Of a DNA stretch of 64,000 nt, positions 50,783-60,577 are shown in pieces. This stretch comes from Escherichia coli (GTDB lineage: Bacteria; Pseudomonadota; Gammaproteobacteria; Enterobacterales; Enterobacteriaceae), in NCBI RefSeq assembly GCF_003018255.1, contig NZ_CP027440.1; one strand, written 5' to 3'. The translations under genes and the position numbers were made by a program. Under the pieces are notes generated by a model. It saw only the letters and a program-made list of their open reading frames with translations, did no database searches and was not told the DNA's origin. Position 1 is the first letter of the stretch. Every line of letters starts with the position of its first letter.

Positions 50783-50818
50783 TGAGTATTAACGAGTCAT
50801 TGTAAATTGCAGTACGAT

Positions 50819-50846
50819 AATGGCTTCCAGTACTGGAAGCCATTTT
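50819..50846 (+). terminator. Rho-independent terminator after metE
   Basis: Hairpin AATGGCTTCCAG-TACT-GGAAGCCATT followed by TTTG. Confidence 0.7.
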
Positions 50847-50950
50847 GCATGAGTGCCAGATTGAAGCAGATCTTCAGGAGTAGAAATAACCGAATCGTTT
50901 TTTTCGCAAAACACAGTTTTGAGTGATTCCGTTCAGTAATCAACGCTACG

Positions 50951-51211
50951 TTATTTATTCTCACGTTGCACGAGATTGTATCCCTTTTCACTAACGTGGT
51001 AGTGAGGCATAGACTTATGCCCGCTATCCTCAATAATAACCAAACCTTCGTTAGCTAATTTGTTAACAATATTAACAATATTACCGAATCCTGGTATTTG
51101 CCTTATGGATAGTGTGCGATCGAGATTCATCCAGTTCCAGTTTATATCTTTCTCAGTCATAACGTTCAGCACGTTAAGTTCATTTTTAGTGATCACGATA
51201 TTCTGTACCAA
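50951..51211 (-). CDS. second paralog of putative immunity protein (possible orphan immunity)
   Basis: 86 aa; clearly paralogous to the 51271-51528 product (shared IVxxNxLxVMxEKDIxWxWMxLDRTLxIRxIPGFGNxxNIVxKLxNxGLVxI pattern); AT-rich. Confidence 0.55.
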   Translation of the reverse strand: MVQNIVITKNELNVLNVMTEKDINWNWMNLDRTLSIRQIPGFGNIVNIVNKLANEGLVIIEDSGHKSMPHYHVSEKGYNLVQRENK

Positions 51212-51270
51212 AATTGATGAGTATCTTATTGAAAGATCACAATGTAAATCATGCTCCTGTAATGGCTGGA

Positions 51271-51528
51271 TCAGAAGAGGTTGTCTTGTTGTTCTTTGAT
51301 AAGATTCAATCCATATTGAGAAACTCTGTAGCGTGGTTTAGAGTTGCCCTCACCATTTACGATATCAACCAACCCATGATTAACCAGCTTTGTTACGATA
51401 TTCGCTACGTTGCCAAATCCTGGAATATTTCGTATAGCTAAAGTACGATCCAGCACCATCCAGCTCCAGTCAATATCTTTCTCAGCCATAACTTTCAGCA
51501 CGTTAAATTCAACTATCGTAATCGTCAT
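51271..51528 (-). CDS. putative cognate immunity protein of the Hcp-fusion effector
   Basis: 85 aa; start codon overlaps the stop of the upstream Hcp-fusion gene (ATGA at 51525-51528), the arrangement typical of effector-immunity pairs. Confidence 0.55.
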   Translation of the reverse strand: MTITIVEFNVLKVMAEKDIDWSWMVLDRTLAIRNIPGFGNVANIVTKLVNHGLVDIVNGEGNSKPRYRVSQYGLNLIKEQQDNLF

Positions 51529-52658
51529 TTTTTTGCATCCGGATGAAATAAGTCAGTATCTTTAATTTTAAAGTCTTCTAGAGTTGCAGTATGTACATTA
51601 TTCCATAATTCATATCCATCTAAACCTTTCGGTTCACCTGTTTCCCATCCTAAATTACAATAACGCTGATACTCGCGACATTCATGAGTATAGTAGTTCA
51701 GATCGTATTTTTCAGGAAGCAATTCTTTATTTGCTATTTTCTTTAGCCTTGAAATCATTACATCATTAGCTGGATCATGATCAAATCTGGAGATATGCTT
51801 TTCAACAATAGCGATACCTTCCCTGTTGATTGTTACGCCATCTATCGTCAGGTTTTCAATTGGACCACCGGCAAGGTCGGGATTAAATGGTCTTCCTGAT
51901 ACTGCTCCTCTGGCTCCGAAATGCTCAAGTGATTCCAAATCAGGGAATCTCATTCTTCCCAGAACAACTCCAGCAACTATTGAAGCACCAGCGATGAGTA
52001 ACCCTTTGTTATCCATAACTTGATCGTAACCAGCAGGTGCATCTCCTCCCAACTTGTTTGCTGTTTCCCTGAATCCTTCGATATTCCCATTGTATATGCC
52101 GCCAGCAGCAAGCAGTCTGCCAACCGCTTTACTATTGAGTGTTTTGAGGCCATTATCATCTTTAGTTTTTGGCCGTGGTATAAACAGACGGTTGTAGTTA
52201 TCGGGAAATGCCAAATAACTAAATTCAGTATTAGCAATCAGATGCCTGGAGAGTATATATTCATAACTGGCAGTGATGGTTTCTGTATCCAGATTGTTCT
52301 CAGTAAACAGGTGATTGATTGCTGATAAGAGCGCGCCGCGGAGTTGAATGTTGTAATATTTCTCCCATCGACCAAATCTATTGATCCGATAGAAGTCAAA
52401 CTCCATGAACAACTGCTCGTTATTGTTAATAGCGTTAATAAGTAACGGGGAGCTTTTGTCAATCAACTTACAGAAACTAAGGCCATGTAATTGTGACCCT
52501 TTGCCTGTATTCGTAATACTATTAGATAGCGAGAACGCGAAGATTTCATCTTCATGGCCAATCTGCCAGCGATTACCTATTGATGCGCTCGTTCCGCAAC
52601 GAGAGGAAATACATCCTTGTTGTTCTCCGGTTATGGTCAGGTAAATAATATCACTCAT
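51525..52658 (-). CDS. Hcp-domain protein with C-terminal extension (candidate T6SS Hcp-effector fusion, Hcp-ET-like)
   Basis: 377 aa; N-terminal ~165 aa match the Hcp tube-protein signature (YLTITGEQQG...DEIFAFSLSNSITNTGKGS...LSFCKLIDKSSPLLINA; compare Hcp FIKIGDVKGES...IDVLAWSWG...LSFTKYIDKSTPNL); ~210 aa C-terminal extension of unrecognised fold; AT-rich. Confidence 0.7.
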   Translation of the reverse strand: MSDIIYLTITGEQQGCISSRCGTSASIGNRWQIGHEDEIFAFSLSNSITNTGKGSQLHGLSFCKLIDKSSPLLINAINNNEQLFMEFDFYRINRFGRWEKYYNIQLRGALLSAINHLFTENNLDTETITASYEYILSRHLIANTEFSYLAFPDNYNRLFIPRPKTKDDNGLKTLNSKAVGRLLAAGGIYNGNIEGFRETANKLGGDAPAGYDQVMDNKGLLIAGASIVAGVVLGRMRFPDLESLEHFGARGAVSGRPFNPDLAGGPIENLTIDGVTINREGIAIVEKHISRFDHDPANDVMISRLKKIANKELLPEKYDLNYYTHECREYQRYCNLGWETGEPKGLDGYELWNNVHTATLEDFKIKDTDLFHPDAKK

Positions 52659-53049
52659 CCTTGAAAAACCTTTTGTTAATTCTTTTGTGAAAGAAAAATA
52701 GTATTGTTATTTTTTACCTTTATTTACGCCCAAAAGGGATGAACTAAAATGTGAAAAACAAAATGTTTCACTTTAATATCTTTTTATCAGGAAGGTCTGA
52801 GATAATTTATAATTAATGTGAATGTGTTGATAATAATTAATGTTTGTTTGAGAATGGGAGTTGATGGTAAATCTCTAAGGTGTCTGCCAGTGAAGAGACT
52901 CATTTATGACTATGACTTGCCGACTTTCTTAAGGTCAAATAGCGGAGTCGTGCTCTCCAATCAATTCATACTGATTATTTTTTGGGGGACAGAGATGGCA
53001 GCAAAATGCACTCGTTCACTCACCATCTCAAATATAGACTAAGAGGAAA

Positions 53050-54123: not shown

Positions 54124-54888
54124 ATGTCCAAGTCTGATGTTTTTCATCTCGGCCTCACTAAAAACGATTTACAAGGGGCTACGCTTGCCATCGTCCCTGG
54201 CGACCCGGATCGTGTGGAAAAGATCGCCGCGCTGATGGATAAGCCGGTTAAGCTGGCATCTCACCGCGAATTCACCACCTGGCGTGCAGAGCTGGATGGT
54301 AAACCTGTTATCGTCTGCTCTACCGGTATCGGCGGCCCGTCTACCTCTATTGCTGTTGAAGAGCTGGCACAGCTGGGCATTCGCACCTTCCTGCGTATCG
54401 GTACAACGGGCGCTATTCAGCCGCATATTAATGTGGGTGATGTCCTGGTTACCACGGCGTCTGTTCGTCTGGACGGCGCGAGCCTGCACTTCGCACCGCT
54501 GGAATTCCCGGCTGTCGCTGATTTCGAATGTACGACTGCGCTGGTTGAAGCGGCGAAGTCAATTGGTGCCACCACTCACGTTGGTGTGACGGCTTCTTCT
54601 GATACCTTCTACCCGGGTCAGGAACGTTACGATACTTACTCTGGTCGCGTAGTTCGTCACTTTAAAGGTTCTATGGAAGAGTGGCAGGCGATGGGCGTAA
54701 TGAACTATGAAATGGAATCTGCAACCCTGCTGACCATGTGTGCAAGTCAGGGCCTGCGTGCCGGTATGGTAGCGGGGGTTATCGTTAACCGCACCCAGCA
54801 AGAGATCCCGAATGCTGAGACGATGAAACAAACCGAGAGCCATGCGGTGAAAATCGTGGTGGAAGCGGCGCGTCGTCTGCTGAAATAA
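54124..54888 (+). CDS. udp: uridine phosphorylase
   Basis: 253 aa from ATG 54124 ([35 protein letters not shown]); PNP/UDP family. Confidence 0.9.
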
Positions 54889-54913
54889 AAAACGCTCCCC
54901 AACTTCGGGGAGC
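54889..54913. terminator. hairpin terminator shared by udp and the convergent tct operon
   Basis: GCTCCCC-AACTTC-GGGGAGC hairpin; the T-run lies on the minus-strand side (complement of AAAAAACG), so it is best placed to terminate the minus-strand tct operon. Confidence 0.6.
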
Positions 54914-54921
54914 GATATCAG

Positions 54922-56412
54922 TTACTGACGCCGTAAACGCATTATTTTGCGGATTATTGGCGTCAGTAGCGTAAAGGCTGCCAGAGTTAGCAATGCCAGA
55001 GTGATCGGTCGGGTATACAGAAAGTCCAGTGAACCCCCTGAAAGCGACAGCGCACGGCGAAAATTACTTTCTGCCATCGGGCCCATAATCAATGCCAGCA
55101 CTACGGGTGATGCCGGATATCCTCCTTTCTGCATGAAATAGCCCACCACGCCTGCAATCAGCATAATGCCAACATCAAACAGGCTATTGTTCAACGCATA
55201 AGTCCCGACCACACAAAGTGCGAGGATCATCGGTGTGAGAATATTGCCGGGGATCTTCACCACGTTACCGATGACTTTCAAAGAGAGCAGTCCAAGAACT
55301 AGCAGCATGAAGTAACAAAAGATCATGCCGACAAACAGTGTATAAACCATATCGCCGTGGTCGGTAAACATCAGCGGGCCTGGTTGCATTCCCTGTAACG
55401 TTAACGCGCCCAGCATGATGGCGGTTACCGCATCGCCAGGGATCCCCAGCGTCAGCATAGGTAACAATGCGCCACCGGTGCAGCCATTCGCGCCTGCCTC
55501 ACAGGAGGCCACAGCTTTAATTTCACCCTTACCAAAGTTTTCTGGTGTCTTACTGAAACGACGAGTTTCGTTATAGGCAACAAAAGCTGCAATATCCGCC
55601 CCCGCACCGGGGATCATGCCGATAAAAACCCCTAATCCTGATGAGCGCAAAATGGTTAATGCAATGCGGCGTAGTGTTTGCCAGGGCAGTAACAGACTGC
55701 CGATAGCCACCTTCGCCCCCTGACGAATTTGCTGGTTTTGCTCCATAGAGCGGAATGCTTCTGAAGCAGCAAATAAACCAATCATCACCGGGATAAATGG
55801 CACATTCATCAGCTCCACAAATCCACCTGTAAACCGTGGAAAACCGCCCATTGGATCAAGGCCTATCGTTGCGATCAGCAATCCGCCAACCCCGGCAATC
55901 AGCCCTTTAATCAGCGACTCACCGGAAATACTGGCAATAATACTCAGTCCGAAGGTTGCCAGGGCGAAGGACTCCGAGGCACTAAATTTCAGCGCCCAAC
56001 TGGCAAGTACCGGAGAGAGAAACATCAGCACGATAATGCTGAGCGTTCCGCCACTAAAGGAAGAGAACGTGGCGGCACTCAATGCCAGCCCTGCTTTTCC
56101 CTGTTTCGTCAGCTCATAACCATCAATAGCGGTGGCTGCGGCGGCAGGCGTTCCGGGAATTTTGAGCAAAATTGCGGTGATAGAACCACCGTAGACGCCA
56201 CCAAAAAAGACGCCGCAAATCATCAACAAGCCAGAAACAGGCTCCATGCCGTAGGTGAAAGGCAGCAAAATCGCCACACCCATGGTCGCTGTCAGACCAG
56301 GCAAAGCGCCAATCACAATACCCAGCATCACCCCAAAAGTGGCAAACAGCAGCGCCTGAGGATTATTGAGTAATGTCGAAAAACCCTGAGTTAAAAGTTC
56401 ACTTTCAAACAT
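54922..56412 (-). CDS. tctA: tripartite tricarboxylate transporter large permease
   Basis: 496 aa, many TM helices; TctA-family features (GAITAILLKIPGTPAAAAT, GMIPGAGADIAAFVAYNE). Confidence 0.75.
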   Translation of the reverse strand: MFESELLTQGFSTLLNNPQALLFATFGVMLGIVIGALPGLTATMGVAILLPFTYGMEPVSGLLMICGVFFGGVYGGSITAILLKIPGTPAAAATAIDGYELTKQGKAGLALSAATFSSFSGGTLSIIVLMFLSPVLASWALKFSASESFALATFGLSIIASISGESLIKGLIAGVGGLLIATIGLDPMGGFPRFTGGFVELMNVPFIPVMIGLFAASEAFRSMEQNQQIRQGAKVAIGSLLLPWQTLRRIALTILRSSGLGVFIGMIPGAGADIAAFVAYNETRRFSKTPENFGKGEIKAVASCEAGANGCTGGALLPMLTLGIPGDAVTAIMLGALTLQGMQPGPLMFTDHGDMVYTLFVGMIFCYFMLLVLGLLSLKVIGNVVKIPGNILTPMILALCVVGTYALNNSLFDVGIMLIAGVVGYFMQKGGYPASPVVLALIMGPMAESNFRRALSLSGGSLDFLYTRPITLALLTLAAFTLLTPIIRKIMRLRRQ

Positions 56413-56424
56413 TGCTGGCCCCTG

Positions 56425-56934
56425 TTATTCGAAAAATGTGCCGACAGGCAATGGCACCTGTAACGCTTCGACAAACAGCAACCAGAGGATTGCCGTTAAC
56501 AGCAGCGCAATACCCGGTGTGAGTACCCATCGCCTGTAGCCCATCAACGTCATAATGACGATGAGGAAAACAGGAGTAGTAATGAGATAACCGCAGTAGC
56601 TCATCGCCACAATATAAAACGCGGTTGCCGCAATTCCTGTTGCTGTTTTCCTGAATGCCGGTTTTTCCTGTGCGTTGGCGCAAGAGGCTGGTTTTGCCTG
56701 CAAAAGATCGCGTATCACCAGCAAGACAGCGAGCACAATCAGGGCACAGGCATAGAAGGTAGGGAAGGCACTTGCACCGGGATCCGTTTCAATGGCAGTT
56801 GCTGGAAAATCAGCGGCATTAATCATCACCGCGCCAGCAACCACACAAAGTAACAGCGCCACCACCATCGTTGATGAAAGGCGCTTGCGGTGCGGTACGG
56901 CGAGTTGAGCAACAGACTGTTTTGTGTTCATCAA
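56425..56934 (-). CDS. tctB: tripartite tricarboxylate transporter small membrane subunit
   Basis: 169 aa with 4 TM helices, between tctC-like and tctA-like genes. Confidence 0.65.
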   Translation of the reverse strand: MMNTKQSVAQLAVPHRKRLSSTMVVALLLCVVAGAVMINAADFPATAIETDPGASAFPTFYACALIVLAVLLVIRDLLQAKPASCANAQEKPAFRKTATGIAATAFYIVAMSYCGYLITTPVFLIVIMTLMGYRRWVLTPGIALLLTAILWLLFVEALQVPLPVGTFFE

Positions 56935-56947
56935 CCGTACCTCAGGT

Positions 56948-57922
56948 TTATTTTTTCAGGCCCAGGCGAGTCAGCAACTCGTCAAAGTACTTTTCCTGTT
57001 CGCTGATTTGGGTCTGGAAGCTGGCAGCGTCAAGCCATGCATAGTTGAGATTCAACTTTTGCAGTGCATCCTGGAATGCAGGCTCTTCAGCCGTCTCTTT
57101 TGCTGCCTTTGCCAGAACATCCACCACATCCTGCGGCGTTTTTTGCGACACAATCAGGCCGCGCCAGGTGCCGATGGAGAGATCAACGCCTTTCTCTTTT
57201 AACGTCGGGACGTCAGGCATGGTTTTCATTCGCTCATCCGCCATCACTACCAGTGTCTTCAGCTTGCCGCCATTCACATGGTTGATAACTTCTCCTGGGC
57301 TTACGGAAACCGCTTCAATATGCCCGCCTAACAGGCCTGTAATGGCAGGGGCTGCGCCGTCATACGGGACATGAGAAAACTTTGTGCCCGTTTTGTCTTC
57401 CAGTGCAGCTGCCGCCAGATGCCAGATAGCTCCGGTGCCTGAGTTACCAATGCGTACTTTTCCGGGATTCGCTTTGGAGTAAGCCATAAATTCTTCATAG
57501 CTATTCCACGGCGCATCGGCACGGACTGTGATAGCAGCCGGATCCGCATTCAGACGGGCAATGGGTTTAAAGTCGCTGGTTTTAAAACGCACCATTCCGA
57601 GGCTGGGAAGGGTGGTCAGTTCAACCGTGCCTAAACCAATTTTGTAACCGTTAGGGCGGGCAGCGGCGATTTCACTCAGGCCGATAGCACCGCCTCCGCC
57701 AGGTTTATTGATAACCCCGATGCTGACGGGTAAATGGTTTTTGGCGGCATCAGCAAAGGCACGGGCAACCAGATCCGTACCGCCTCCGGCAGCGTAGGGA
57801 ACGACTAACTCGATCTGTTTGGTTGGGTAGGAGGCAGCCTGTACAGGCGCAATGCTGAGGGCAGCGCCTGCAAGAAGTACCATTGCAGCCATTTTTTTCG
57901 GTAAGGTAAGATGTTTTATCAT
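56948..57922 (-). CDS. tctC: tripartite tricarboxylate transporter periplasmic substrate-binding protein (Bug/TctC family)
   Basis: 324 aa; signal peptide; Bug-family architecture (IELVVPYAAGGGTDLVAR, GNSGTGAIWHLAA). Confidence 0.75.
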   Translation of the reverse strand: MIKHLTLPKKMAAMVLLAGAALSIAPVQAASYPTKQIELVVPYAAGGGTDLVARAFADAAKNHLPVSIGVINKPGGGGAIGLSEIAAARPNGYKIGLGTVELTTLPSLGMVRFKTSDFKPIARLNADPAAITVRADAPWNSYEEFMAYSKANPGKVRIGNSGTGAIWHLAAAALEDKTGTKFSHVPYDGAAPAITGLLGGHIEAVSVSPGEVINHVNGGKLKTLVVMADERMKTMPDVPTLKEKGVDLSIGTWRGLIVSQKTPQDVVDVLAKAAKETAEEPAFQDALQKLNLNYAWLDAASFQTQISEQEKYFDELLTRLGLKK

Positions 57923-57946
57923 TGCTTTTATATCCTTATTTATCAG

Positions 57947-58576
57947 TTAGTTGCTATTTAAATTGTTCCATGCGTTCATAAACAGTACTGCATTTTCATA
58001 GACTTGCTCTGGCGTCATGCCGGGGCGATATAGCGCAGAACCGAGGCCAAAGCCGTTTGCGCCGTGGCTCAGATAACGCGCCATGGTTTCCGGTGTGATA
58101 CCGCCAACCGGTAACATCGGAACGGATTGTGGAATAACCGCACGCCAGGCTTTGGTAACTTCTGGCGTAATTTGTTCAGCCGGGAACAGCTTGATGGCAT
58201 TAGCACCATGTTCAATGGCAGCAAAGGCTTCGGTGGGCGTGGCGACGCCAGGCGCACAATACATACCCAGCGCACGGGCGCGACGGATCACCGCAGTATC
58301 GCAATGCGGCATCACGATAATCTGGCCCCCAGCCTCTTTAACCGCAACCACCTGCTCTACCGAAAGCACAGTTCCGGCTCCGACCAGGCAGTCCTTAGGC
58401 AGGGCGTCGCGCAGTAAACTGATACTTTGCAACGCCTCCGGCGAGTTCATAGGAATCTCAATCAGGCGGAATCCGGCGGCGTACAGTTTTTCACCGATGG
58501 CGACAATCTCATCCGGTTTCACGCCGCGTAAAATGGCGACTAACCCGGTTTTTTGCAAAAGTGTATTAAATGGCAT
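57947..58576 (-). CDS. 2-dehydro-3-deoxy-6-phosphogalactonate (KDPGal) aldolase-like
   Basis: ORF track starts at 58651; ATG at 58576 with SD (MPFNTLLQKTGLVAILRGVKPDE) aligns along its length with remembered E. coli DgoA (KLPLIAILRGITPDE...EIPLNSP...GAGTVL...VGGVTPEN). Confidence 0.75.
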   Translation of the reverse strand: MPFNTLLQKTGLVAILRGVKPDEIVAIGEKLYAAGFRLIEIPMNSPEALQSISLLRDALPKDCLVGAGTVLSVEQVVAVKEAGGQIIVMPHCDTAVIRRARALGMYCAPGVATPTEAFAAIEHGANAIKLFPAEQITPEVTKAWRAVIPQSVPMLPVGGITPETMARYLSHGANGFGLGSALYRPGMTPEQVYENAVLFMNAWNNLNSN

Positions 58577-59570
58577 GGGTACATTCCCTGGCGTTGGTGG
58601 ACAGTAACCCGGCAGCGTGGGCGATTCGCCATAATCCATGTTCAGTGGCATTAGGAATGGCGTGTATCTGTCTGTCGGGAAAAACGTGGCTGAATGCTTG
58701 TGAATAGCGGCTGTTCAGATTTGCGCTACCGATTAAGGCGATCGGTGTTGTGGCGGGTAAATCACGTAGCAAACTGGATGCCAGACCACATAATTCATGG
58801 CCTATCAGTAATCCGGAAAGGTAATCCCCCTGCGAGGACGACGTAAGATTACTGGTCAGCAGGCGCGAACGGGTCGAAAACAGCGTCGATAATAATCCGG
58901 TCTGATGATGCTCTTGTGCTGCTGTCAGCCCGTGGGTGAAGGCATCCCAGTGCGGTTCATCTCCAGGATGCATGGTGGCACCGAGAATCGAATGGCGGGA
59001 TAAAACATCAAATAACTCGCCCGTCATAAAGGTTCGGAAATCGGTAATGGTGTTGTTTTCAACTACTGCCCATTTCGCATGTGTGCCGGGTAAGCCTATC
59101 AGCACTGGCATACCCTGATGGATCGCGTTTTGCAGGGCCGGTTCCATCGAGATAGCACCGAAGATTTGTGTCTCTTCGCCACGCATCACTTCGGGCATTT
59201 CACCTTCTTTAATCACGCCAGGAATGATGTGCAGCATTGTCTGCTGCTGGTGGATAACAGGCGTCAACTGCTTCGCCAGACCCTCGAGAGTGACCGGGCA
59301 AGGTAAATAAGCTGCTGATTGCCACCCTTGCGCACTGCCGAGCATGCCGCAAGCCAGTACCGGGCATGGGGTTTGTGCCAGCCAGTCGCCGCAGACACGT
59401 AAAAACGTATCGTGGAAAGCGTCCTCACGTGTTGCTGCCTGGGAGGGTAATTTCATGATCCCCCAGGGGAATTCACGTTTTTCTTGTGGATTTGGTGATT
59501 CGCCAAAACGCCATGCCCGAAGCGATGACGTTCCCCAGTCCAGGGCAATAAATGAGGGTGCTCCCGGCAT
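58566..59570 (-). CDS. 2-dehydro-3-deoxygalactonokinase-like
   Basis: 334 aa; IALDWGTSSLRAW and VMRGEETQIFGA motifs match DgoK (IAIDWGSTNLRAW, VMRGEETQLIGA); 3' end overlaps the aldolase start. Confidence 0.75.
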   Translation of the reverse strand: MPGAPSFIALDWGTSSLRAWRFGESPNPQEKREFPWGIMKLPSQAATREDAFHDTFLRVCGDWLAQTPCPVLACGMLGSAQGWQSAAYLPCPVTLEGLAKQLTPVIHQQQTMLHIIPGVIKEGEMPEVMRGEETQIFGAISMEPALQNAIHQGMPVLIGLPGTHAKWAVVENNTITDFRTFMTGELFDVLSRHSILGATMHPGDEPHWDAFTHGLTAAQEHHQTGLLSTLFSTRSRLLTSNLTSSSQGDYLSGLLIGHELCGLASSLLRDLPATTPIALIGSANLNSRYSQAFSHVFPDRQIHAIPNATEHGLWRIAHAAGLLSTNARECTHAI

Positions 59571-59593
59571 TAGTCGTTTCCTTTAATCATGGT

Positions 59594-60361
59594 TTATTTA
59601 TCTTTGCGGACGTGCTTACCCCAGCCCAGTTCAGCGGATATCTCTTCTGCACAGGATTTGACGTAAGGTGCCAGTTCTTCCAGACGCGCCAGCGACATAT
59701 ACGTGGTGGTACTGGCGACAGAAATAGCCGCCACAATTTCATCCCGGGCGTTGTAAACCGGCGCTGCAACGCAACGGATAGTCGGCTCGTTCTCTTCCAG
59801 ATCAAAAGCAAAACCACTGGCGGCATAACGACGCATGTTCTGAATAAATGCGCCCAGTTTTGTTTCATCACCACAGGTCTTAAACAGCGTGCGCCACTCT
59901 TCTTCTGTTCGGTTGAGGATCAATGCCTTGCCGATGCCGGTGATTGCCAGTGGCATGCGATGGCCTGGGCGTGAGCGCATTTCCAGCCCGCGCTGACTGT
60001 TGATCTTCTCCAGATACAGCACTTCGTCGCCTTCAACGATCCCCAGATGCACGGTGTCCAGGGTGTAACGGGCAAGGCGTTGCAAAACGGGCTGGGCAAT
60101 TTCGTACAGTGAGGTGCTTTCCAGTGCTCTGGCACCGAATTCGATCAGTTTGGCACCCAGTTGGTAGCCCTGCGTTGGGACATGGCGCAGGTAGCGTTGT
60201 TCCACCAGAACGGTGACTAAACGATGGGTTGTGCTCCGGGTCGTGCCGGTGAACTCGCCGATACTTTTTAGGTCATGGCAGCCGTTATAAACAGCATTAA
60301 GAACCGCCAGTCCACGTAATAACGTTTGTGCGCCTGCGGTGGTTGAAGAGGTTTCTGCCAT
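59594..60361 (-). CDS. IclR/KdgR-family transcriptional regulator
   Basis: ORF track starts at 60535; ATG at 60361 with AGGAG SD (MAETSSTTAGAQTLLRGLAVLNAV) gives ~255 aa; N-terminal winged HTH and C-terminal effector domain laid out as in KdgR. Confidence 0.7.
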   Translation of the reverse strand: MAETSSTTAGAQTLLRGLAVLNAVYNGCHDLKSIGEFTGTTRSTTHRLVTVLVEQRYLRHVPTQGYQLGAKLIEFGARALESTSLYEIAQPVLQRLARYTLDTVHLGIVEGDEVLYLEKINSQRGLEMRSRPGHRMPLAITGIGKALILNRTEEEWRTLFKTCGDETKLGAFIQNMRRYAASGFAFDLEENEPTIRCVAAPVYNARDEIVAAISVASTTTYMSLARLEELAPYVKSCAEEISAELGWGKHVRKDK

Positions 60362-60422
60362 ACGTTTCTCCTGATGATATTGCTGAAGTGTTCCACATAA
60401 TGACGTGGGGAAAAGGTGATAT

Positions 60423-60458
60423 ATCCCACAATATAAACTCCATCTCATATTGTGGGAT
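60423..60458. promoter_or_regulatory. perfect inverted repeat, candidate operator of the IclR-family regulator
   Basis: ATCCCACAATAT-N12-ATATTGTGGGAT, 12-bp perfect arms, 60-100 bp upstream of the regulator start and about 120 bp upstream of rmuC. Confidence 0.4.
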
Positions 60459-60577
60459 AAAATAATGAAAATTAACGATCGTTTTGCGTAGCGCCTCGCA
60501 GGAAATGCCTTTCCAACTGGACGTTTGTACAGCACAATTCTATTTTGTGCGGGTAAGTTGTTGCGTCAGGAGGCGTT

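Follow-up and report, generated by a model that had tools for sequence, protein, structure and literature searches.

Between udp and rmuC in the stretch of Escherichia coli DNA analysed here (64 000 nucleotides of contig NZ_CP027440.1, hereafter the window), six minus-strand genes encode an IclR-family regulator, a DGOK-family sugar-acid kinase, a DgoA-clade pyruvate aldolase and the TctC, TctB and TctA subunits of a tripartite tricarboxylate transporter (TTT). We propose that this island is a self-regulated, functional accessory operon that would take a monomeric 2-keto-3-deoxy-hexonate from the periplasm into central metabolism. An original prediction, made from the sequence alone, had described a separate uptake-and-catabolism module for an acidic sugar, and that conclusion holds. 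We see about an even chance that the island is a trimmed enterobacterial form of a proteobacterial module that scavenges uronate-derived keto-deoxy acids.

This TTT is carried by approximately 27% of complete E. coli genomes, including sequence type 131 (ST131) and the laboratory B/BL21 lineage, and no characterized TTT system in E. coli was found in the literature searched. Names from the Prokaryotic Genome Annotation Pipeline (PGAP) are already attached to all six genes in more than 1400 genomes, and a similar arrangement of IclR, TTT and dgoK genes has been predicted in another bacterium (PMC5507952). Among full texts outside subscription journals we found no study of the E. coli cluster, the sole mention being an incidental tctA row in an RNA-seq table for enteropathogenic E. 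coli.

Gene content and regulatory sequences

The six open reading frames (ORFs) lie between the udp stop (54888) and the rmuC start (60578), and the limits given in the original prediction, 54889–60577, run exactly from one to the other. The two flanking genes are neighbours in K-12, as originally stated: in MG1655, udp (b3831) and rmuC (b3832) are separated by a 140-bp spacer. With gene starts taken from the RefSeq annotation of a 99.8%-identical genome, the operon opens with iclR (59594–60361, minus strand as are all six, 255 aa), followed after 23 nt by the kinase gene (58566–59570, 334 aa), which overlaps the gene for the class I pyruvate aldolase (57947–58576, 209 aa) by 11 nt. After a further 24 nt comes tctC (56948–57922, 324 aa), encoding a periplasmic solute-binding protein (SBP) of the Bug/TctC family, then after 16 nt tctB (56425–56931, 168 aa from the PGAP start, the small membrane subunit) and after 12 nt tctA (54922–56412, 496 aa, the large membrane subunit). 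Both the compact organization and the gene identities are as originally described, the latter now by direct family tests for every gene. The 234-aa aldolase ORF and 313-aa iclR ORF in the program-made list are upstream extensions and not likely genes.

The kinase matches Pfam PF05035 over the full model (5.3e-89), aligns with PDB 3R1X at 2e-37 (3R1X and 3T69 both fall near 1e-37) and is 37% identical to K-12 DgoK. The aldolase scores 321.6 bits against NCBIfam NF006600 (cut-off 207) and 3e-50 against PDB 2V81, the E. coli 2-keto-3-deoxy-6-phosphogalactonate (KDPGal) aldolase, with 45% identity to K-12 DgoA and 26% to Eda. Equivalents of the catalytic residues E37 and K126 are kept, and those of I12 in β-strand 1 and V154 in β-strand 7 are present in the motifs LVAIL and PVGG. 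The latter two sites have been shown experimentally to steer selectivity between KDPGal and 2-keto-3-deoxy-6-phosphogluconate (KDPG) (PMC4915726). Simple neighbour-joining trees unite the TTT-linked aldolases in a single clade, whose sister group is the DgoD-linked DgoA proteins, and nest K-12 DgoK among the kinases of TTT-linked modules. Clustering of either enzyme with unrelated families, which the original prediction had named as evidence that would count against it, was not seen. Taken alone, the homology of the two enzymes supports a putative De Ley–Doudoroff pathway.

A close parallel within E. coli is the presumably core operon dgoRKADT, with which the accessory island shares the kinase family and aldolase subfamily, an overlap of the kinase stop with the aldolase start, and the predicted end products pyruvate and glyceraldehyde-3-phosphate. 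As originally noted, the two differ in transporter and regulator: a TTT replaces DgoT, of the major facilitator superfamily, and an IclR protein replaces DgoR, of the GntR type. The island also lacks DgoD, and its aldolase belongs to the separate sister clade.

TctA matches Pfam PF01970 (1.2e-151, model positions 1–423/423) and TctB matches PF07331 (1.9e-21), while the SBP was assigned to PF03401 through a cluster representative with 98% identity to it. Structural matches of the SBP include BugD, BugE, Bug27, TphC and MatC. Read directly from the sequence, the SBP carries AGGGTD, corresponding to the AGGxxD motif of TTT proteins, and its N-terminus resembles a Sec signal peptide ending at VQA/AS. 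By these sequence features TctA, TctB and TctC are members of the TTT family, with putative carboxylate transport driven by an ion gradient. The family prototype, the TctCBA citrate transporter of Salmonella, has the same three-component architecture and Pfam families; it differs in its class of ligand, has no linked catabolic enzymes and answers to a two-component system where the island has an IclR protein.

The closest solved structure to the SBP is TctC from Polaromonas (Bpro_3516, PDB 4X9T; 4e-100, 51.5% identity), which was crystallized ligand-free with its substrate listed as unknown (PMC5812351) and therefore gives no functional information. The nearest SBP with a measured ligand is PDB 25HK (7e-64, 38.9% identity), the TTT-C protein of Vibrio sp. 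C42, which binds unsaturated alginate oligosaccharides (PMC13390454). Seven of 11 mutationally tested contact residues of 25HK are identical in the E. coli protein, including G24, G183 and T225, the three proposed to set specificity. Like the island as we read it, the Vibrio system serves uronate-polysaccharide catabolism, but it is set in a lyase-rich alginate locus and takes up oligosaccharides; the E. coli SBP has a GNSGTGAIWHLAA loop that is three residues longer and differs at S164 and E165. With no lyase linked to the E. coli SBP, a monomeric ligand would be expected. SBPs with di- or tricarboxylate ligands are only distantly related to it.

The regulator gave full-length matches to the BhcR, KdgR, PcaR and IclR models, each under its equivalog cut-off. 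Its score against BhcR (143.3 bits, cut-off 350) is above that against the KdgR equivalog NF011671 (128.8 bits, cut-off 275), and its sequence assigns it to the IclR family only, not to the KdgR equivalog. An AGGAG ribosome-binding site precedes the iclR start. Upstream, 61–98 nt from the ATG (60422–60459), a repeat scan identified a perfect 13-nt inverted repeat, TATCCCACAATAT-N12-ATATTGTGGGATA, as a candidate operator. A TCCCACwATnTGGGA-like motif, present once in each arm, is found without mismatch nowhere else in the window and differs from the KdgR box. Palindromes of a related kind precede iclR in most of ten other genomes examined from alpha-, beta- and gammaproteobacteria (Phytobacter, Klebsiella oxytoca, Brenneria, Rhodoferax, Skermanella, an Acetobacteraceae genome and Spirabiliibacterium), with weaker matches in Photobacterium and Brevibacillus; this conservation supports autoregulation of the whole operon by the IclR protein. 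One arm of the candidate operator carries a G-to-A change in ST131. At the other end of the operon, a terminator scan found a hairpin with a G+C-rich 9-bp stem (54893–54914) between the convergent udp and tctA genes. With the T-run that comes after it on the minus strand, this hairpin is likely to end transcription of the operon and probably that of udp too.

Distribution, constraint and history in E. coli

The island was present in 1457 of 5426 complete E. coli genomes, with 1420 of the 1457 copies at least 99% identical. Carriers include ST131, IAI39, ATCC 25922 and a derivative of E. coli B; the island was absent from K-12 and from sampled O157:H7 genomes. Presence in all E. coli including K-12, the other finding that the original prediction had set against itself, was thus not observed. 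All sampled copies are annotated as intact. Compared with ST131 and E. coli B, the ratio of non-synonymous to synonymous divergence (pN/pS) for the island genes was 0.11–0.13, the TctA, TctB and IclR proteins were identical, and tctA differed from the ST131 copy by 27 synonymous and no non-synonymous changes. Since pN/pS is close to 0.12 and tctA has accumulated no amino acid changes, the island genes are kept by selection, and we conclude that they are under purifying selection. Synonymous divergence in the same comparisons is uneven along the island, with pS of 0.04–0.07 in tctA and approximately 0.005 in the kinase gene and iclR, which suggests a recombination mosaic inside the operon.

Junction comparison with the empty-site strain 7A, together with MG1655 adjacency and a repeat scan, places the whole accessory segment at 54883–60481 (5,599 bp), where it stands in place of 47 bp of the K-12-type udp–rmuC spacer. 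One junction falls in the end of udp (54880–54888), such that the protein ends in ...RRLLK* in carriers and ...RRLL* in empty-site strains, a difference of one extra C-terminal lysine that is reflected in separate RefSeq accessions (WP_000045178 and WP_000045177, respectively). The repeat scan found no flanking direct repeats, there are no mobility genes, and the G+C content of approximately 0.52 is similar to that of adjacent genes, with no shift in composition at the junctions. As no plasmid copies were found either, a classic mobile island was ruled out.

The original prediction had called the cluster inserted, a direction that the data do not establish: the locus is a presence/absence polymorphism with unique sequence in each state. 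In E. coli HS-02 (NZ_CP172818.1; locus L092, 7009–8419), udp is a truncated pseudogene, and the approximately 1.4 kb without annotation that separate it from rmuC share just 81.6% identity with the island's kinase/iclR end. Judged by its sequence, this segment is what decay has left of a divergent allele in that position, and the history of the locus thus includes loss and allele replacement rather than one simple insertion.

Orthologous modules and the imported acid

Relatives of the SBP were collected from 78 genome loci, and their neighbourhoods were annotated by BLAST and unsupervised ORF clustering. The orthologous set comprises 24 loci, 22 proteobacterial (SBP identity 57–84%) and two from Brevibacillus (66–67%). 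Nearly every SBP orthologue with at least 57% identity has genes for IclR, DGOK, aldolase and TctBA beside it, mostly in a shared order, the few exceptions being loci cut by a contig end or lacking one called gene. The module is spread across alpha-, beta- and gammaproteobacteria.

No DgoD-type dehydratase or lyase is encoded in the island or in any of the approximately 24 orthologous modules. A BLAST search with K-12 DgoD against all ORFs of the 78 related loci returned a single match, in a locus with a distant SBP, and clustering, by which alone further dehydratase families such as IlvD/Edd and UxaA were covered, revealed no additional dehydratase or lyase family that recurs. DgoD, DgoK and DgoA occur together beside a TTT in Vibrio sonorensis alone, at a locus whose SBP is just 42% identical to that of E. 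coli.

Three extra families do recur: a short-chain dehydrogenase/reductase (SDR) cluster in 16 of the 24 loci (15 of them A1-R-like), an SGL/SMP30-like protein in 9–11 loci and a 2-hydroxyacid dehydrogenase in four. The A1-R-like SDR matches A1-R and A1-R' of Sphingomonas with E-values of approximately 1e-102 to 1e-106 and is approximately 64% identical to them by hand count on the printed gapless alignment. In Sphingomonas sp. [quoted passage not shown] The SDR gene lies directly after tctA in the Stutzerimonas module and is also found in modules of Rhodoferax, Azospirillum, Photobacterium and others, a parallel with the Sphingomonas pathway of DEH reduction, KDG kinase and KDPG aldolase. 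The parallel is incomplete, as the E. coli island has no A1-R-type DEH reductase and the Sphingomonas enzymes are described as KdgK and Eda-type rather than DGOK and DgoA-type. The SGL protein has only distant PDB matches of the regucalcin or xylonolactonase type (approximately 1e-27) and no NCBIfam match; our guess is that it might open cyclic or lactone forms of the acid.

SDR orthologues adjoin oligoalginate lyase genes in Kluyvera and Mangrovibacter. In the Enterobacterales Kluyvera ascorbata (locus L090, 4138–9777) and Mangrovibacter (L096, 9001–12741), small alginate-oligomer loci combine genes for an oligoalginate lyase, a regulator of the GntR type and a reductase resembling A1-R, with a sodium-solute symporter in addition in K. 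ascorbata. The Kluyvera lyase–symporter–reductase locus had no near-identical match among complete E. coli genomes in a search by megablast only, made with this locus alone.

The fullest version of the module among those compared is a ten-gene, operon-like array in Photobacterium pectinilyticum (L024, 6993–15728), in the order IclR, DEH-reductase-like SDR, TctC, TctB, TctA, SMP30-like, DGOK, DgoA-clade aldolase, KduD/gluconate-5-dehydrogenase-like and DhuI-like. The last two are additions to the usual set; the DhuI-like isomerase, with LacAB_rpiB and DUF3666 domains, matches PDB 4U8E (gbs1892, 1e-75), which we take to be the streptococcal DhuI. The two Brevibacillus SBPs sit with a PfkB-type kinase gene resembling those for KDG or 2-keto-3-deoxy-D-galactonate (KDGal) and an aldolase of the Eda type (PTGG) that carries the KDPG-type threonine, and in one Firmicute relative the transporter is linked to a bona fide KduI (379 bits, cut-off 250).

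Some modules have other neighbours. That of K. oxytoca (L003, 3079–5258 and 11239–12003) is flanked by a divergent pair encoding a distant second DGOK paralogue (21% identity) and an iron-type alcohol dehydrogenase, which could stand in place of the DEH-type aldehyde reductase of other modules; a second IclR gene lies downstream. In Rhodoferax (L004, 3639–4427), a gene for a type I 3-dehydroquinate dehydratase adjoins the DEH-reductase-like SDR, possibly by coincidence. According to a review, hydrated cyclic DEH resembles quinate (PMC8778563).

These comparisons constrain what the E. coli transporter might bring in. There is no dehydratase, reductase or isomerase among the six island genes, so the import must be either the substrate of the kinase, a 2-keto-3-deoxy-hexonate, or a compound that core KduI and KduD can convert. 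As fuller modules add a DEH reductase, and sometimes DhuI/DhuD-like and lactonase-like proteins, the ligand would be among the derivatives of 4,5-unsaturated uronates: KDG, possibly DEH or 4-deoxy-L-threo-5-hexosulose uronate (DKI). Putative sources would be degraders of alginate, pectin or glycosaminoglycans. The comparison points away from D-galactonate and citrate.

In the mechanism that we propose, the IclR protein would bind the paired palindrome upstream of its own gene and restrain transcription of the six genes as long as neither the sugar acid nor its phosphate is available. Secreted TctC would then catch the acid with high affinity and pass it to the TctA/TctB secondary transporter; the DGOK-family kinase would phosphorylate C6, and the DgoA-clade aldolase would split the product into pyruvate and D-glyceraldehyde-3-phosphate. 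By analogy, the island appears to operate like the enterobacterial KdgR regulon (kdgT, kdgK, eda), which likewise combines an IclR-family repressor with a 2-keto-3-deoxy-hexonate transporter, a kinase and a class I pyruvate aldolase and has no dehydratase. It differs in having a DGOK-family rather than a PfkB kinase, a DgoA-clade aldolase rather than Eda, and a transporter that depends on a binding protein. We infer the ligand, its C4 stereochemistry and the regulation from gene content, family membership, conservation, population distribution and comparative context.

The identity of the hexonate is where the lines of evidence conflict, since homology would favour KDGal and genomic context KDG. 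We therefore derived the stereochemical relationships from Fischer projections. DEH from mannuronate or guluronate reduces to KDG, and DKI from galacturonate, glucuronate or iduronate gives KDG after isomerization and reduction; the hydroxyl at C3, which ends up at C4 of KDG, is retained in all natural 4,5-unsaturated uronates, leaving no route to the C4 epimer of KDG, D-KDGal. A path from DEH or DKI to D-KDGal was accordingly rejected, as reduction and isomerization yield KDG or L-KDGal, never D-KDGal. The projections revealed no reaction through which a DEH reductase and a strict KDPGal aldolase could belong to one pathway; either the DgoA sister clade and the DGOK kinases of the modules would accept the gluco epimer, or some further chemistry would be involved. 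The De Ley–Doudoroff framing of the original prediction consequently survives in part: the placement of the kinase with DgoK and of the aldolase with DgoA is borne out, while the implication of galactonate or KDGal is probably off, given that orthologous modules have no galactonate dehydratase and that the products of their extra genes (the DEH reductase homologue and, in one genome, the DhuI/DhuD-like proteins) have KDG stereochemistry.

Several observations weigh against a uronate-derived ligand and the mechanism built on it. The only characterized relatives of the two enzymes act on KDGal and KDPGal, the aldolase exceeds the cut-off of the KDPGal subfamily model and keeps both selectivity residues, and K-12 DgoK nests among the module kinases in the simple tree, all of which would sit more easily with a galacto-configured substrate. 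As uronate products are KDG-type at C4, a KDG ligand demands that a clade sister to DgoA, and kinases of the DGOK family, accept the C4 epimer. The context of relatives may not transfer to E. coli, whose island lacks the reductase, isomerase and lactonase-like genes, and since E. coli already has KdgT, KdgK and Eda, any benefit of the island would have to lie in affinity or in regulation of its own. For 25HK, the contact residues were defined by docking and mutagenesis rather than by a crystal structure with bound ligand. Finally, a consensus scan for a sigma-70 promoter on the minus strand upstream of iclR was blank, and manual reading yielded weak candidates only.

The most serious competitor takes the enzyme homology literally: the TTT would import KDGal, the kinase convert it to KDPGal and the aldolase cleave this, making the island a second, dehydratase-free copy of the lower De Ley–Doudoroff pathway under an IclR regulator. 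Family matches, identities, selectivity residues and tree positions of both enzymes favour this scheme, and the missing dehydratase would suit direct uptake of KDGal. We nevertheless find it unlikely, if well short of negligible, because an abundant extracellular source of D-KDGal is not evident, the recurrent partners in the modules (and KduI in relatives) make KDG, with the opposite C4 configuration, and the Brevibacillus orthologues of the SBP sit with KdgK-like and Eda-type genes. Nor is the residue signature exclusive. We had considered I12/V20 together with V154/T161 as a decisive test of stereochemistry and dropped it, as the KDPGal-type isoleucine and valine also occur in one KduI-linked and two PfkB-linked aldolases; the signature therefore does not decide the physiological substrate.

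Import of D-galactonate itself, to be dehydrated in trans by the core DgoD that E. coli possesses, is improbable. Genomic reconstruction predicted this role for a locus with an IclR regulator ('GalR'), TTT and dgoK in Salinivirga (PMC5507952), and the V. sonorensis locus provides an actual TTT–DgoD–DgoK–DgoA arrangement, but the SBP of the latter is distant from that of E. coli, none of the orthologous modules has the dehydratase, and with DgoT and the galactonate-induced dgo kinase and aldolase in the cell the island enzymes would be pointless. Slighter still, in our view, is the chance that the island has no present function, being cryptic cargo or cargo in decay, or that its TTT truly carries tricarboxylates (citrate), as the name of the family would imply. 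The 73% of genomes without the island, the eroded relic in HS-02 and the blank promoter scan would fit the former, and the citrate transport of the family prototype (PMC5812351) the latter. Against them stand the low pN/pS, the absence of non-synonymous change in tctA between lineages, the intact annotation of all sampled copies and the distance of the SBP from binders of di- and tricarboxylates. In addition, a derivative of E. coli B carries the island, and descendants of E. coli B in the long-term evolution experiment classically cannot use citrate aerobically (PMC7299349), although the link between these two observations is our own.

Returning to uronate-derived acids, a more specific form of this proposal is that the DGOK kinase and DgoA-sister aldolase of the module are a KDG kinase and a KDPG aldolase, or are blind to the C4 epimer, so that a stereochemical switch would be concealed in two families to which all annotation pipelines give a galactonate-specific label; TctCBA would then be the first bacterial high-affinity importer of monomeric KDG, DEH or DKI, and E. 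coli carriers (B, ST131 and others) would cross-feed independently of KdgR. We put this forward tentatively, and it is rather more likely to be wrong than right.

Implications and a neighbouring strain-specific segment

If the comparative reading is true, thousands of TTT-adjacent database entries named '2-dehydro-3-deoxygalactonokinase' or 'KDPGal aldolase' (EC 2.7.1.58 and EC 4.1.2.21, respectively) would be stereochemically mislabelled, and the module would offer a candidate route for bacterial uptake of the alginate monomer DEH or of KDG, which matters for the engineering of seaweed-sugar fermentation. E. coli strains would then also differ in their scavenging of breakdown products from gut polysaccharides. 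Should the enzymes have switched epimer, carriers would cross-feed, without dependence on KdgR, on alginate, pectin and glycosaminoglycan products released by gut degraders. Taken literally as a KDGal pathway, the island would be a second, dehydratase-free KDGal salvage operon, of modest interest.

A second strain-specific segment lies elsewhere in the window (50783–53049), between metE and ysgA, which are adjacent in MG1655, and has a G+C content of 0.35–0.43. It includes a minus-strand gene (51525–52658) for a 377-aa TssD/Hcp-like protein with a long C-terminal extension, followed downstream by small hypothetical ORFs (51271–51528 and 50951–51211). Its content suggests an orphan type VI effector of the 'evolved Hcp' kind, possibly accompanied by immunity genes.

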